Positions 21,516 through 52,687 of a DNA stretch of 53,542 bases are shown piece by piece. Below the pieces are notes generated by a model. That model had not been told where the DNA came from and made no database searches. It was given only the letters and a program-made list of their open reading frames with translations. This stretch comes from a virus. Its lineage: Duplodnaviria; Caudoviricetes. The stretch covers positions 1-53,542 of the IMG/VR virus record IMGVR_UViG_3300010354_000121; one strand, written 5' to 3'. Numbering within the stretch: the first letter of the stretch is position 1; each line of letters begins with the position of its first letter. The translations under genes were made by a program, and so were the position numbers.

Positions 21516-21547
21516 TATTTAAATAGTTATTATGTCTAAATAATAAT

Positions 21548-21614
21548 AAGTCTGTTCAGATGGCACTCTCTACAGACAGAAAAGGCGCTTCTTTATGAGG
21601 CGCCTTTTCTTTTA
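21548..21614 (+). ncRNA. Putative small antisense RNA, copy 1 (upstream of terminase large subunit)
   Basis: CTAAATA at 21536-21542; GTCT...CTCTACAGAC body; terminator at 21578-21614; 21551-21565 is complementary to 21641-21655. Ends are approximate. Confidence 0.6.
21578..21614 (+). terminator. Intrinsic terminator
   Basis: AGAAAAGGCGCTTC-TTTAT-GAGGCGCCTTTTCT followed by a T-run. Confidence 0.8.
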
Positions 21615-21629
21615 TGGAGAATTATTAAT

Positions 21630-21636
21630 CTAAATA
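21630..21636 (+). promoter_or_regulatory. Late promoter for gp17
   Basis: CTAAATA after the terminator and 37 nt before the ATG. Confidence 0.65.
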
Positions 21637-21673
21637 ATAATGCCATCTGAATAGAATAGTAAAAGTAATTATT

Positions 21674-23764
21674 ATGTCTGATACAAATCATTACATGGGA
21701 AATCCGTTATTGAAACGGGCAAATATTCCCAGTGAATTTACACAAGAGCAATTAGTAGAATTAGCAAAATGTGCGGCTGATCCCGTGTATTTTGCTAAAA
21801 ATTATATTAAAATTGTTAACATCGATGATGGCCTTGTATCATTTGATATGTGGCCTTTTCAAGAAAAGATGCTTACTACTTTTCATGAAAATAGATTTAG
21901 TATTTGTAAACTTCCCCGTCAGCCGCTAGAAGATAATACCCCAATCCCGACTCCTAGTGGTTATAAAAAAATTAAAGATCTAAAAATAAATGACATTGTT
22001 TATGATTTATATGGAAAGAAAACAAAAGTCATAAACAAAGTAAGTTATAAAAATACCGAAAAATGTTATAAACTTTCTTTTAAAGGAAAAATATTTGAAG
22101 AAAAAATTTTTTGTGATAAGGATCACTTCTGGAGAGTATATTTTGACAATACTTGCCAAGTATTGACTACAGAGCAAATTTATAATTTAAAAAAAGAAAT
22201 TTTCTTAAAAAGACAATCGTTTAATACATTAGTTGATAATTGGGGCGAAGTAATAAAATTAGTATCAATAGAAGAAATTGAGCCCGTAAATGTTTCGTGT
22301 GTTGAAATAGAAAATAAGGACCATTCTTTTTTATGTGGTAAGAATTTTATACCCACGATGAACTGCGGAAAAAGCACCACGGCGGTATCATTCCTTCTAC
22401 ACTACGCAATTTTCAATGATAATGTCTCTATTGCTATTCTTGCAAACAAGGCATCAACAGCAAAAGATCTACTAGGAAGACTACAAGTATCTTTTGAAAA
22501 CCTTCCTAACTGGATGCAACAAGGTATTAAATCATGGAATAAAACGTCATTAGAACTTGAAAATGGATCAAAAATTATAACCGCATCAACTTCAGCATCT
22601 TCTGTTCGGGGGGGTTCTTATAATGTTATCTTCTTGGACGAATTTGCGTTCGTACCAAATAATGTGGCATTGAATTTTATGAATTCGGTTTATCCCACTA
22701 TTTCTTCTGGTAAAGACTCAAAAGTTATAGTTGTATCAACCCCAAATTCGCTTAATCATTTCTATAAAATGTGGGATGATGCTATAAAAAAAGAAAATGA
22801 TTATGTTCCACTAGAAATTAACTGGAATGACGTTCCTGGAAGAGACGAAGAATGGAGAAAGAAAACTATTGCAAACCTAGGCTCTGAGAAAGCCTTCGAC
22901 CAGGAATTCAACTGTTCTTTCCTCGGATCATCAGACACTTTAATTTCTGGAGCAAAACTCCAAACAATGGTACATAATAAACCAATAAAATCTAAAAAAT
23001 TTCTTGATACTTATGAAGAGCCAATAGAAGAACATCAATACATGATAACCGTTGACGTTGCAAGAGGCGTTGATCTTGACTATTCGGCATTTACTGTTAT
23101 TGACATAACCAAAATGCCTTATAAAATGGTAGCAAAATACCGGGACAACACAATCAAACCGATTATGTTCCCCTATATTGTCAAAGATGTTGGGCTCCAT
23201 TATAATAAGGCCTTTGTTTTATGTGAGACAAATGACGTTGGAGATCAGGTTGCCAATGCCCTTCATTATGACCTCCAATACCCCAATCTACTTACCTGTT
23301 TTATTAAAGGAAGACAGGGGCAAGTTTTAGGTCAGGGTTTTGGTGGAAATCGAGTTGAGTATGGCGTTAAGATGTCTAAAAACGTCAAAAAACTAGGCTC
23401 GATCAACCTAAAAATGTTAATCGAAGAAGATAAACTATTAATCAATGATTACGACACGATTAATGAATTATCGACATTTATTCAAAAATCTAATTCTTTT
23501 ATGGCCGAGGAAGGCAAAAATGATGACCTTGTTGCTTGTTTGATCCTATTTGCCTGGGCCTCAACAAACGAGTACTTCAAAGAAATCACCGATGATGATA
23601 TTAGAAAAAGACTATTCCAAGAAAAACAGGCCAATGAAGAGAACGATATGCTCCCAATTGGGTTCTTAGAAAACGGTCTACAAGAAGAAACATTTGTAGA
23701 AGAAGATAAACTTTGGCATGTTGTTTCTAATGAAGAACTAGCCACCCTTTGGAATTTCTATTAA
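21674..23764 (+). CDS. gp17: Terminase large subunit gp17, intein-containing
   Basis: YMGNPLLKRAN, DPVYFAKNYIKI, Walker A KLPRQ//CGKSTT interrupted by an insert, Walker B IFLDEFAFV, nuclease motifs VDVARG and NDDLV. Confidence 0.95.
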   Translation: MSDTNHYMGNPLLKRANIPSEFTQEQLVELAKCAADPVYFAKNYIKIVNIDDGLVSFDMWPFQEKMLTTFHENRFSICKLPRQPLEDNTPIPTPSGYKKIKDLKINDIVYDLYGKKTKVINKVSYKNTEKCYKLSFKGKIFEEKIFCDKDHFWRVYFDNTCQVLTTEQIYNLKKEIFLKRQSFNTLVDNWGEVIKLVSIEEIEPVNVSCVEIENKDHSFLCGKNFIPTMNCGKSTTAVSFLLHYAIFNDNVSIAILANKASTAKDLLGRLQVSFENLPNWMQQGIKSWNKTSLELENGSKIITASTSASSVRGGSYNVIFLDEFAFVPNNVALNFMNSVYPTISSGKDSKVIVVSTPNSLNHFYKMWDDAIKKENDYVPLEINWNDVPGRDEEWRKKTIANLGSEKAFDQEFNCSFLGSSDTLISGAKLQTMVHNKPIKSKKFLDTYEEPIEEHQYMITVDVARGVDLDYSAFTVIDITKMPYKMVAKYRDNTIKPIMFPYIVKDVGLHYNKAFVLCETNDVGDQVANALHYDLQYPNLLTCFIKGRQGQVLGQGFGGNRVEYGVKMSKNVKKLGSINLKMLIEEDKLLINDYDTINELSTFIQKSNSFMAEEGKNDDLVACLILFAWASTNEYFKEITDDDIRKRLFQEKQANEENDMLPIGFLENGLQEETFVEEDKLWHVVSNEELATLWNFY
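21923..22363 (+). mobile_element. Mini-intein (147 aa, class-3-type) in the gp17 Walker A motif
   Basis: Insert PLEDNTPIPTPSG...DHFW...VSCVEI...FIPTMN followed by Cys; removal restores PRQCGKST; too short to hold a homing endonuclease. Confidence 0.88.
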
Positions 23765-50609: not shown

Positions 50610-51071
50610 ATGGCTAATTATGAATTGAATGGCCAATACATTAAATGGTCCCCGGATCTTATGGTAGAAGTAGAGCTGGAAACCCCAGACTCTTTTCTTC
50701 TTGCAAAAGAGACATTAACCCGCATGGGTGTTGCATCCAAATATAAAAAGGAATTATACCAAACTGCCCACGTACTTTATCGCGGAAATAAATACTATTT
50801 GGTGCATTTTAAATTTATGTTTGTTCTTGATAATCGTAGTGCAACAATTACGGTTAATGATCTAGAGAGGCTTCATGCTATTGCTCACTTACTCGATCAG
50901 TGGGGAATTGTAAAAGTCAAAAATCCGGCCCAAATAGAGGATCGGGCTCCACTAAACCAAATCAAGATTCTTCCGTTCAAAGAGAAACAATCTTGGAATC
51001 TTGTAGAAAAATATAGTATAGGGAATACAAAGAAAAAGAACGACACTACTGATTCTTTGATAACTAAATAA
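50610..51071 (+). CDS. regA: Translational repressor RegA
   Basis: ETLTRMGVAS, LYQTAHVL, YYLVHFK; TATAAATA at 50573-50580. Confidence 0.88.
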   Translation: MANYELNGQYIKWSPDLMVEVELETPDSFLLAKETLTRMGVASKYKKELYQTAHVLYRGNKYYLVHFKFMFVLDNRSATITVNDLERLHAIAHLLDQWGIVKVKNPAQIEDRAPLNQIKILPFKEKQSWNLVEKYSIGNTKKKNDTTDSLITK

Positions 51072-51074
51072 CTA

Positions 51075-51140
51075 CGTCTTTAGGTACGGCAATACTCTAC
51101 AGACAAAGATTAGGTGGCCTTTGGGTCACCTTTTCTTTTA
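51075..51140 (+). ncRNA. Putative small antisense RNA, copy 2 (upstream of HNH endonuclease)
   Basis: CTAAATA at 51064-51070; GTCT...CTCTACAGAC body; terminator at 51112-51140; 51077-51094 is complementary to 51165-51182. Ends are approximate. Confidence 0.6.
51112..51140 (+). terminator. Intrinsic terminator
   Basis: AGGTGGCC-TTTG-GGTCACCT followed by TTTCTTTT. Confidence 0.75.
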
Positions 51141-51188
51141 TAAAATATTATTTTAACTAAATAATATTGCCGTACTTAAAGAATAAAG

Positions 51189-52115
51189 ATGTGTAGACTA
51201 AACGAACGCACCCATAAGCATCATATCATTCCAAGATACATGGGTGGAAGCAATGAGCCAAAAAATCTTGTTAAAGTAACAGTAACTCAACATGCCATGT
51301 TCCACTTCTGTAATTACCAATTATGGGGTAATGAAGAAGATAGAATAGCATGGAGAGCTTTATCTGGTCAGATAACCATGGATGAGATCAAATTAGAAGC
51401 CCAGTCTTTAAATGGCAAAAGAAATAGCCAAAAACAGAAAGAGAATGGAACTGGAATTTTTGGACTAACATTAGAGCAAAGAATTGAAGCTGGCAAAAAA
51501 GGAGGACAAATACATAAAGAAAATGGAACTGGAATTTGTGGACTAACTTATGAACAGAGAAGGGAAATAGGTAAAAGAACAAACCAAAAATGTAAAAAAA
51601 ATGGTACCGCATTTTATGGTATGAGTCCAGAAAAAAGATCGGAAAATGGTAAAAAGGGGGCCGAAGTAAATAGACAAAATGGAACTGGGATTTTCGGACT
51701 GACGCCAGAACAAAAAATAGAACGTAGTAGAAAGTCGGGTCAAAAAACATATGAAGACGGTATTGGAATTCACGGAATGGATCTAGAAGAAAGAGTTGAA
51801 GTCTGCAAAAAAGGAGGAAAAAAAGGCGGAAAAATAGTCTCTTCCCAAAAATGGCAATGCACAGTAACTGGACATGTTTCTAATGCAGGAGGACTTTCTA
51901 GATTTCAAAAAGCTAAGGGGATCGACACATCGAATAGAATAAAAATAGATGGACCTAGAAGTTGGGAAATTACTTTTGAAGATGGTAGAGTTGTTGTTAC
52001 TAATTGTTTATCTACTTGGGCCAAAGAAAACGGCTATAAGTATGTTAATATCCATAGTGTACGGATAGGAAACTCTTCAAATTACCAGGGAATCGTAAAA
52101 GTAGTTCCATTCTAA
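51189..52115 (+). CDS. HNH homing endonuclease with five 26-aa tandem repeats
   Basis: HKHHIIPRYMGGSNEPKNLV...QHAMFH N-terminal HNH motif; NGTGIFGLTxEQR repeats; CTAAATA at 51157-51163. Confidence 0.8.
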   Translation: MCRLNERTHKHHIIPRYMGGSNEPKNLVKVTVTQHAMFHFCNYQLWGNEEDRIAWRALSGQITMDEIKLEAQSLNGKRNSQKQKENGTGIFGLTLEQRIEAGKKGGQIHKENGTGICGLTYEQRREIGKRTNQKCKKNGTAFYGMSPEKRSENGKKGAEVNRQNGTGIFGLTPEQKIERSRKSGQKTYEDGIGIHGMDLEERVEVCKKGGKKGGKIVSSQKWQCTVTGHVSNAGGLSRFQKAKGIDTSNRIKIDGPRSWEITFEDGRVVVTNCLSTWAKENGYKYVNIHSVRIGNSSNYQGIVKVVPF

Positions 52116-52261: not shown

Positions 52262-52687
52262 ATGACACTAGCAAAATACAACTCAACTTCACTGTCTAAA
52301 TTTCTTGATGACTTAGACAGGTCTAGCATCGGGCTTTATGACTGGCTCGATAGGGTAACATATCTGGACACCCAGTCCAATTACCCCCCATATAATCTAA
52401 TAAAAGAAAGTGACACAAGATTTAAACTAGAACTGGCGGTTGCTGGTTTTAAACGTTCGGAACTTTCTGTGTACACTGAGAATAATCAACTCATTATCCA
52501 ATCAAATCGGGCCGATAAAGAGGAATATAAATACGTTCATCGCTTTCTTTCCCAGAGAAACTTTAAGAGAGTTTGGCCCATTTCTGATGACATTAGAGTT
52601 GATAATGTAGATCTTGTTGATGGTATTTTAACCGTTCATCTTGATCGGATTGTTCCAGATCATCAGAAGAAGAAAGTTTATTTCTAA
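52262..52687 (+). CDS. hsp20: Small heat shock protein Hsp20
   Basis: NYPPYNLIK, LELAVAGF, DGILTVHL alpha-crystallin motifs; between regA and gp43. Confidence 0.92.
   Translation: MTLAKYNSTSLSKFLDDLDRSSIGLYDWLDRVTYLDTQSNYPPYNLIKESDTRFKLELAVAGFKRSELSVYTENNQLIIQSNRADKEEYKYVHRFLSQRNFKRVWPISDDIRVDNVDLVDGILTVHLDRIVPDHQKKKVYF

Follow-up and report, generated by a model that had tools for sequence, protein, structure and literature searches.

A portable leader cassette of homing endonuclease genes in T4-like cyanophages, possibly with a trans-acting small RNA

The DNA considered here is a 53.5-kb window (53,542 nt, the whole of IMG/VR record IMGVR_UViG_3300010354_000121), a fragment of a T4-like cyanophage whose nearest cultured relatives are the Synechococcus phages B3/B23 and S-SRM01. 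In this window, an HNH element is wedged between a regA-type repressor gene (50610–51071) and an Hsp20 gene (52262–52687), and its nuclease gene, a free-standing homing endonuclease gene (HEG), is preceded by a short segment that we call cassette B. A preliminary description of this DNA proposed that the segment holds two CTAAATA boxes, a terminator and a separately promoted small RNA whose "guide" is complementary to a "target" in the leader of the nuclease gene, and that a homologous copy, here cassette A, stands before the terminase gene. The features at the locus of cassette B are as follows.

50610–51071, + strand: regA-like translational repressor gene (Pfam PF01818, E 2.2e-33)
51064–51070, + strand: P1, a late-promoter-type box CTAAATA (from the sequence; TAAATA at the same place in 96/96 terminator-anchored relatives)
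51076–51104, + strand: local hairpin made of GTCT, a 14-nt segment and CTCTACAGAC (RNAfold; closing pairs covary)
51077–51094, + strand: 5′ arm, the earlier "guide" (17/18 complementary to 51165–51182; family covariation)
51105–51141, + strand: intrinsic terminator, with a GC-rich stem at 51112–51131 and a T-run (consensus terminator scan; RNAfold)
51157–51163, + strand: P2, a late-promoter-type box CTAAATA (from the sequence; P2 box in 96/96 relatives; predicted +1 at 51169)
51165–51182, + strand: 3′ arm, the earlier "target", ending 6 nt before the ATG at 51189 (arm complementarity; family covariation)
51189–52115, + strand: HNH homing endonuclease gene, 308 aa (phrog_655 "homing endonuclease", E 7.6e-12)

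The boxes, hairpin, terminator, arms and ATG thus lie where the preliminary description had placed them. The HNH open reading frame (ORF) also gives a PF01844 match, which is weak and under the cut-off. P1 is overlapped by the final codons and the stop of the regA-like gene. The C-terminal codons of this gene differ between the window and B3, and in the window they are supplied by the inserted element.

A script check of the two arms shows that bases 51077–51094 are the reverse complement of 51165–51182 at 17 of 18 positions. The sole exception, G51083 opposite T51176, is a G-U pair in + strand RNA only, and both the match and its exception reproduce what had been claimed. No other inverted repeat in the window reaches 17/18 with a loop of 40–120 nt, and none of this kind is seen in 20 dinucleotide-type shuffles of the window. 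When the read-through RNA is folded with RNAfold, the long-range helix between the arms is the minimum-energy fold (z −7.9 and −9.5). The second helix is the local hairpin, which opens at 51076, the predicted +1 of P1. In it GTCT pairs with the AGAC of CTCTACAGAC, referred to below as the handle, and the loop displays the middle of the 5′ arm.

Relatives of the cassette were sought among viral contigs by pattern scans, followed by a scan keyed on the terminator motif alone to avoid circularity. The first pattern scan gave 80 loci, four of them real (L046, L070, L063 and L081) and 76 chance matches, mostly in coding sequence. The second gave 12 real copies in 14, with L089 and L091 being chance matches, and the third 4 in 13, the other nine being without the P1-GTCT-handle pattern. 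The terminator-motif scan located at least 120 places. Among the matches listed, 124 in all, seven were dropped because they lie near a locus end, and merging of 21 duplicates in the 117 with enough flank left 96 unique copies. Alignment A2 (MAFFT, 100 rows) combines these 96 terminator-anchored copies with the two window copies, L046 and L081, and was not fitted to any structure. Two of the 96, L144 and L151, have no 3′ arm; they were excluded from the model alignment A3 and from the binding-energy set, and retained in A2 and in the tally of ORFs.

The layout of the cassette is constant across this family. A TAAATA box is found on both sides of the terminator in 96 of 96 copies, with the upstream box 30–38 nt before the terminator motif and the downstream box reading TATAAATA in 89 of them, and the promoter boxes and terminator first noticed in the window are therefore family features. 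P1, which is present in all 100 aligned copies, stands exactly 5 nt (91 of the 100 rows) before a purine (G 78, A 22) that opens the local hairpin, while P2 stands exactly 5 nt (98 of 100) before a purine that opens the 3′ arm. The late TATA box of T4 spans −13 to −6 (PMC2988020; this and the other articles given by PMC number are cited from the parts of their text that were available), and with the 5-nt spacing this makes the two purines the predicted +1 sites. The predicted RNA from P1 to the terminator measures 56–65 nt, and the leader from the predicted P2 +1 to the ATG measures 20 nt in 80 of the 96 copies. Since the helix takes up ∼15 nt of that leader, it covers all but the final 5–8 nt before the ATG. 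In 64 of 96 copies the P2 TAAATA begins 4 nt past CACCTTTTCT, such that the T-run of the terminator enters the P2 box.

The placement of CTAAATA in the window is in line with a promoter element. The motif is not over-represented (14 observed, 17.7 expected), and all 11 of its + strand occurrences are intergenic or at gene edges. Leaving aside the two P1 boxes, eight of the nine remaining + strand occurrences are located 22–74 nt ahead of an ORF start. Judged by this placement, CTAAATA behaves as the late-promoter box of the window phage.

A variant of this layout was seen in 29 of the 96 relatives (e.g., L108, L112 and L114; A2 columns 96–112), where an extra 10-nt unit occurs between the terminator and P2. 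The unit contains a degenerate box (TATAAAC, TATGAAC or similar), which is then followed by an intact TATAAATA, and it has the look of a P2 box that was duplicated and has since decayed.

The arms vary widely while retaining their complementarity. The 100 copies contain 54 distinct arm pairs and 38 distinct 5′ arms, yet 86.9% of the cells of the long-range helix are paired, and 13 of its 18 pairs have changed on both sides. The pairs interchange freely, as in one position with GC 40, UA 30 and CG 29. The covariation score is 0.292, as compared to 0.115 in shuffles, and none of 500 shuffles reaches it; sliding the partner by 1–3 columns lowers the score to 0.060 or less. The compensatory change that had been read from two copies is therefore beyond chance in the family as a whole, and the complementarity of the arms is under selection. 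Of the 1500 cells in the 15 core pairs, 1323 are Watson-Crick and 117 are G-U when read on the + strand; the rest comprise 32 A-C, 22 further mismatches and 6 gaps. With covariance model R1 the + strand reaches 97.4 bits, far above the 31.6 bits obtained for the reverse strand at that site. The G-U pairs on the + strand and the strand scores of R1 together indicate that the long-range helix is a + strand RNA structure and not a DNA repeat.

The local hairpin covaries as well, with 5 of 9 pairs changed on both sides. Its closing pair is GC in 65 copies, AU in 17 and GU in 7, and the next pair is UA in 78 and CG in 11; the 5′ base of the closing pair is always a purine, as expected of an initiating nucleotide. 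The suggestion that CTCTACAGAC serves as a closing stem is supported by these data, as its AGAC pairs with GTCT and the pairs covary. The variable segment can now be defined as the stretch of the 5′ arm that is constrained only by the long-range helix, since the first bases of the arm also pair with the handle and the last face the P2 start. Two other roles for the handle were considered. Pairing of CTCTACAGAC with the start of the downstream gene fits the HNH start only (TGTAGA) and fails for the other families, and no antiterminator pairing of the handle with a terminator half was seen by eye.

The same cassette is found in cultured phages. In blastn searches of cultured phages with cassette B only the HNH coding part was matched, and a consensus-like copy matched S-SRM01. 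Model R1 detects two copies in the window, which are the known ones, six in S-SRM01, three in B3 and three in G001, a 127-kb relative contig, so that genomes carry 2–6 copies each. All 12 copies of S-SRM01, B3 and G001 retain every part, with arms and terminators that differ in sequence and with the spacing P1, 4–5 nt, purine and P2, 5–6 nt, purine starting the 3′ arm. The helix still stops at the predicted P2 +1 in copies without the common ...GCA/TGC... arm end. At the regA-HNH locus of G001 a cassette is found at the same place, and it is divergent in sequence.

Cassette A provides a second view of the element, as it lies before the terminase gene with no nuclease gene of its own. Its features are as follows.

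21521–21537, + strand: direct repeat, left copy, flanking cassette A and including a duplicated terminase-start ATGTCT (repeat search)
21536–21542, + strand: P1 (CTAAATA), formed at the insertion junction (sequence and repeat search)
21550–21577, + strand: local hairpin, with the 5′ arm at 21551–21567 and CTCTACAGAC at 21568–21577 (RNAfold; arm check)
21578–21615, + strand: terminator hairpin and T-run (14-bp hairpin in RNAfold)
21630–21636, + strand: P2 (from the sequence; predicted +1 at 21642)
21639–21655, + strand: 3′ arm, ending 19 nt before the terminase ATG (15/17 complementary, one G-U)
21663–21679, + strand: direct repeat, right copy, with the real terminase ATG (repeat search)
21674–23764, + strand: terminase large subunit gene (PF03237 and PF17289)

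Cassette A (21536–21676) aligns over its full length to cassette B and has the same layout; the consensus terminator scan gave no call for its terminator. Its arms, 21551–21567 and 21639–21655, match at 15 of 17 positions, the exceptions being one G-U and one C-A. Five arm positions differ between cassettes A and B, and each is altered on both sides, which upholds the original view that the two copies are homologous and that the target follows the guide. The 8-nt variable segment of that view does differ between the copies, but it is simply the only stretch of the helix free of constraint from the local hairpin and the P2 start.

The terminase junction of the window contains an insert of 142 bp, with the direct repeat AAATAGTTATTATGTCT / AAGTAATTATTATGTCT on its two sides. 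In B3 the same junction reads stop codon, 1 nt, ATGTCT, and in G001 there are ∼12 nt from the stop to ATGTCT; both have a single copy of the repeat and no cassette, and in G001 P1 is absent too. The "CT" of the CTAAATA of cassette A derives from the duplicated ATGTCT. At the regA end of B3, likewise, no CTAAATA is found. As P1 is missing from the B3 regA end and from the G001 terminase junction, it arrived with the element in both window copies. These comparisons show cassette A to be a solo insertion, with no nuclease gene attached. Between the end of its helix and the terminase ATG there are 19 nt, and blocking of the terminase gene is therefore unlikely. What had been presented as a terminase homolog of cassette B is thus a homologous copy, but a solo one, without a nuclease gene and with its helix 19 nt away from the ATG. 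The nearest arms to those of cassette A are found in a cassette before an HNH gene elsewhere in G001, one compensated change apart. The flanking repeat is 17 nt long when imperfect and 11 nt when perfect (TTATTATGTCT), and it duplicates the terminase start. It looks like the footprint of an insertion event and may have arisen by target duplication, through microhomology or from loss of a nuclease gene.

The cassette is tied to HEGs as a class. In 91 of the 96 copies the next ORF is an intact one of HEG type (150 aa or more, or still open at the edge of the locus), and these 91 fall into five N-terminal families; the last two lines below give the other five copies.

SPRIYxYKITFEE... family, 41/91: no Pfam or PHROG match for L094; one B3 member weakly matches phrog_314 "homing endonuclease" (3.7e-7)
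Mob-like HNH family, 27/91: phrog_655; 33–41% identical to T4 MobE
GIY-YIG-type family with NUMOD3 repeats, 14/91
EYHYTYYSYEE... family, 8/91: phrog_314 for L090, none for L125
Classic GIY-YIG family, 1/91
Truncated HEG remnant, 3/96: L115, L160 and L123
DUF6450 gene, with no 3′ arm in the cassette, 2/96: L144 and L151

In every copy whose downstream ORF was read, cassette and ORF have the same orientation. A covariance model, covariation counts and a tally of downstream genes, along the lines suggested in the preliminary description, yield an RNA helix that covaries and is followed by HEGs in 91 of 96 copies. In contrast, the proposed tie to the HNH nuclease does not hold, because the same cassette precedes both HNH and GIY-YIG-type genes.

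The proteins of the M..SPRIYxYKITFEEVPYYYYG type (e.g., L094:2090–2719, − strand; gp390 and gp301 of B3, L247 and L249), which are downstream of 41 of the 96 cassettes, probably constitute an unannotated GIY-YIG-like homing endonuclease family. The gp45 product of B3 (L248:640–1263), annotated "translation initiation factor 2", lies behind a cassette and matches phrog_15526 and phrog_314 (homing endonuclease), and its annotation looks wrong. After the third G001 cassette (C1:40564–40670, L246) the next ORF starts MASTKKLTTEEVIQR, and this may be a copy without a link to a homing endonuclease. In the related contigs L144 (2797–2935) and L151 (1651–1789), P1, the local hairpin and the terminator are followed by the DUF6450 gene, with no P2, 3′ arm or nuclease; these orphan "small RNA only" modules could be left over from decay, or they could have their target elsewhere.

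The best explanation overall, to which we would give an even chance, is that of a portable 5′ control cassette of free-standing HEGs in T4-like cyanophages, with a trans-acting RNA of ∼60 nt. A ∼15-bp helix between the 5′ arm and the first 14–15 nt of the ∼20-nt HEG leader would cover the ribosome landing region and block translation of the nuclease. The intrinsic terminator would halt most transcripts arriving from upstream, and any transcript that reads through would have both arms and be silenced in cis. Because P2 lies between the arms, its transcripts would start exactly at the 3′ arm, without the 5′ arm, and be translatable, which is the logic of I-TevI and mobE. P1 is predicted to start transcription at the base that opens the local hairpin, in which the 5′ arm is displayed, and together with the terminator it would give a discrete late RNA of ∼60 nt. 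By base-pairing in trans with the beginning of the P2 mRNA, this RNA would damp nuclease synthesis while P2 is active.

The steps of this scheme differ in strength. The sequences themselves show the layout and its conservation, the covariation of the two helices and the association with HEGs. The helix is very probably an RNA device that limits translation of the nuclease. The conserved promoter boxes and terminator make a separately promoted and terminated RNA of ∼60 nt a fair prediction, and we consider it likely that this small RNA is made. Whether it would then act in trans is a nearly balanced question, tilting if anything slightly to the negative. Predicted thermodynamics allow such action. 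With the local hairpin paid for, the predicted net gain of a small RNA on its own leader averages −15.0 kcal/mol and is below −8 in 96 of 96 cases, as compared to a mean of −4.8 kcal/mol for non-cognate pairs of small RNA and leader. For copies in the same genome, cognate duplexes range from −14.6 to −26 kcal/mol and cross pairs from −2 to −17, and on these energies the copies of one genome would be largely orthogonal. Also in favor of trans action, P1 belongs to the element, as its absence at the B3 regA end and the G001 terminase junction indicates, and in copies with unrelated arm sequences the boundary of the conserved helix still falls at the predicted P2 +1. The box of P1 is of the late type, so that synthesis of the 5′ arm would be late, at a time when the P2 mRNA lacks it.

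Several points weigh against this explanation. The activity of the promoters, the start sites, the efficiency of termination and the small RNA itself are predictions, with the +1 rule borrowed from T4. The leader shows no canonical Shine-Dalgarno sequence, so that sequestration of the ribosome-binding site is deduced from position only (the helix ends 5–8 nt before the ATG). Covariation was counted per sequence rather than per event, in a set with many related copies. A single terminator motif served to retrieve the main set, which represents one subfamily, and model R1 contains the P1 positions, such that P1 in the copies found by the model is not fully independent. As the solo terminase copy demonstrates, the cassette can be retained where a nuclease gene is missing, and P1 could act via RNA polymerase traffic over P2 and not via an RNA. 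Finally, a cis model alone accounts for the long-range helix, as established for I-TevI, I-TevII, I-TevIII, segB and Aeh1 mobE in the available text of PMC2988022.

That cis model is the alternative that survives best, and although we find it doubtful as a full account, it has a substantial claim. It holds that the helix matters only on transcripts with both arms, whether from upstream read-through or from P1, that the terminator is a second barrier, and that the P1 RNA is a by-product. In its favor, the long-range helix is the RNAfold minimum-energy fold of the read-through RNA, and cassette B follows regA within a block of replication genes. For such a block, early or middle transcription from upstream is expected by analogy with T4. 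The model is the plain I-TevI/mobE mechanism with a longer loop, and in the T4-family HEG hairpins just listed a helix lies over the start region and the position of a late promoter leaves late transcripts without the 5′ arm (PMC2988022). A cis reading was also given to hairpins before cyanophage-like HEGs by Dassa et al. (2009), who described "fractured gene" loci in ocean and lake metagenomes. In the available text of that study (PMC2677866), hairpins precede 15 of 16 free-standing HEGs, 10 of them with TATAAATA, two motifs are mutually complementary, and one locus without a HEG keeps its hairpin, in parallel with our solo terminase copy. Those hairpins probably belong to the same or a sister family, the comparison being one of text description only.

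The cassette shares with the T4-family hairpins the RNA helix over the HEG start region, the late promoter that skips the 5′ arm, and a nuclease that would be limited in time and amount. It lies in the 5′ untranslated region of a T4-like phage HEG in 91 of 96 copies and, as read from the sequence, has the late promoter P2 between the arms in 98 of 100. It differs from them in its loop of ∼70 nt with an intrinsic terminator, in the second late promoter directly before the 5′ arm, in the covarying local hairpin that presents this arm, and in a helix that spans +1 to about +15 of the 20-nt leader with no canonical Shine-Dalgarno sequence visible there. In the T4-family hairpins the sole source of the 5′ arm is early or middle transcription from upstream, whereas in the cassette the arm has a late-type box, P1, 5 nt before it, in 100 of 100 copies. 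A late promoter in this position reverses the arrangement of T4, where the 5′ arm is kept out of late transcripts. A model limited to cis thus leaves P1 without a role, though P1 is found in every copy at a fixed spacing to the hairpin and is part of the element, and it leaves the covarying local hairpin without a role as well. The available text of Dassa et al. likewise gives a cis reading only and contains no "terminator", upstream promoter, local hairpin or small RNA (PMC2677866).

The preliminary description stated that a separately promoted and terminated version of the T4 device was not recognized. The core helix and the internal late promoter are in fact already known (I-TevI/mobE; available text of PMC2677866), while P1 and the terminator go beyond them. 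What is new is the conserved upstream late promoter, the terminator in the loop and the covarying local hairpin at the predicted +1 of that promoter. Together these three parts predict a discrete anti-leader RNA of 56–65 nt; a cis-only silencer directed against early or middle read-through needs none of them.

An improbable alternative places the control at the level of transcription. Here polymerases from P1 or upstream would terminate on the P2 box and occlude or feed P2, or a terminator-promoter "reset" would insulate the inserted gene, and the helix would be only a back-up or a processing site, for example for RNase III. A helix of 15 bp with G-U pairs is short for an RNase III substrate, which counts against processing. 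In favor of this alternative, the T-run runs into the P2 box in 64 of the 96 copies, and a model has been proposed in which the clamp-tethered late polymerase of T4 resumes scanning after termination (PMC7892883). Composite terminator/promoter motifs, the PeSLs, are also known mobile modules of T4-type phages (PMC4122927), and they resemble the cassette in being repeated terminator-plus-promoter modules at insertion and deletion sites (PMC4122927; PMC2839356). Unlike the cassette, the PeSLs in the text available have early promoters, no long-range helix and no HEG link (PMC4122927). Both cassette boxes are of the late TATA type, and sigma-70-like matches in the two cassette regions do not exceed chance, at 3 and 6 with 5.6 and 4.7 expected. 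Control by transcription does not predict a 15-bp helix with 13 of 18 covarying pairs exactly over the leader.

It is very improbable that the element works at the level of DNA, with the inverted repeats as ends or recombination sites of an element like the PeSLs or like miniature inverted-repeat transposable elements, and with covariation arising from copying of one arm onto the other. The 142-bp solo insertion of cassette A with its direct repeat of 11–17 nt, absent from G001 and B3, would fit, as would the presence of one cassette before unrelated HEG families and of 2–6 copies per genome. However, the arms are internal, with P1 outside the 5′ arm; terminal, strand-symmetric repeats are not found, and a flanking direct repeat occurs at cassette A only. 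Furthermore, the imperfect pairs include 117 G-U on the + strand against 32 A-C, a strand asymmetry that disfavors this alternative, the orientation of the cassette matches the ORF in all copies read, and the edges of the helix coincide with predicted transcription starts. Lastly, the earlier speculation that the small RNA guides the nuclease protein in RNA-guided DNA cleavage, which draws on the formal resemblance of a variable segment on a constant scaffold beside a nuclease gene, can be dismissed almost entirely, as one cassette serves HNH and GIY-YIG-type genes and also occurs solo, the only known complement of the "guide" is 70 nt off in the same element, a DNA guide would target the phage's own genome, and the HNH proteins are Mob-like, 33–41% identical to T4 MobE, a protein-guided homing endonuclease.

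Returning to the trans-acting anti-leader RNA, its complementarity to the start region of the target, kept by matched changes (13 of 18 pairs, 54 arm pairs), is what is expected of an antisense RNA, and it can be compared to known systems. The c4 antisense RNAs of phages P1 and P7, associated with the names of Citron and Schuster (1990), are reportedly short structured RNAs upstream of their target on the same strand, with loops that pair with its start region. As in the cassette, related versions have different specificities, set by changes in one partner that are matched in the other. Unlike the cassette, c4 is processed from the target's own transcript, functions in temperate phage immunity and has no such promoter and terminator of its own and no HEG; the two have no sequence relation. 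In type I toxin-antitoxin systems and plasmid antisense RNAs (hok/Sok, CopA/CopT), a small hairpin RNA that has a promoter and a terminator of its own pairs through its loop with the leader of a harmful neighboring gene. These RNAs are mostly encoded on the opposite strand or divergently, whereas the cassette RNA and its target would be in tandem on one strand and non-overlapping, and the "toxin" here is a homing endonuclease, with no addiction function implied. StxS of a Shiga-toxin phage resembles the cassette in that a late promoter and an immediate terminator yield a short regulatory RNA; as described in the available part of PMC7547250, it depends on lambdoid antitermination, has host targets and lacks complementarity to the adjacent leader. 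CfrI of S-PM2, also a T4-like cyanophage, is likewise a non-coding RNA with a link to a HEG, but it is a true antisense RNA of ∼225 nt between psbA and F-CphI, with a different layout and sequence (PMC12197685, available text).

A search of the whole window against Rfam 15, the check suggested at the outset, gave no match at gathering thresholds, and the best permissive scores were at most 20 bits, as compared to cut-offs of 40–285. No description of a small RNA before cyanophage HEGs came up in full-text searches of the literature, with the supplements of PMC2677866 (Figure S4) and PMC10690425 (candidate-RNA tables) being places that may hold the motif.

Homing endonucleases are selfish enzymes, and a phage has to hold them in check. 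Their leash in T4-like cyanophages would be a self-contained portable module with two late promoters, a terminator and two competing helices, shared by unrelated nuclease families, where the textbook leash of T4 is a cis hairpin. We propose, tentatively and as somewhat less probable than its opposite, that the P1–terminator unit is a trans-acting "anti-leader" small RNA that travels with HEGs as a programmable brake, with at least 38 specificities on one scaffold that would be orthogonal within a genome. If so, this would be a same-strand, non-overlapping antisense system, and solo cassettes such as the terminase copy would no longer count as dead remnants. Their roles could include the tuning of an essential late gene and, in mixed infection, silencing of the matching nuclease of an incoming relative; the arms of solo cassette A are predicted to pair with the leader of the G001 HNH cassette at −20 kcal/mol. 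Trans action would also define a new class of phage small RNA outside Rfam, an antitoxin-like partner of homing endonucleases, and would offer dozens of natural orthogonal RNA/leader pairs on one scaffold for use in synthetic regulation. The cultured phages S-SRM01 and B3 carry the cassette, which makes these proposals directly testable. For annotation, the cassette flags HEGs, including the family of 41 of the 96 ORFs mostly missed by Pfam and PHROGs, and marks sites of HEG loss.

A final observation concerns the terminase gene behind cassette A. The ORF at 21674–23764 encodes 696 aa in the window, while the homologous open frame in G001 (L227–L229) is 1025 aa long, with an extra segment between its matches to residues 4–235 and 165–696. 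The B3 terminase coding sequence as annotated measures 2643 nt (L001, from 1606 onward). It is possible that the terminase of these relatives contains an insert such as an intein, or a duplication.

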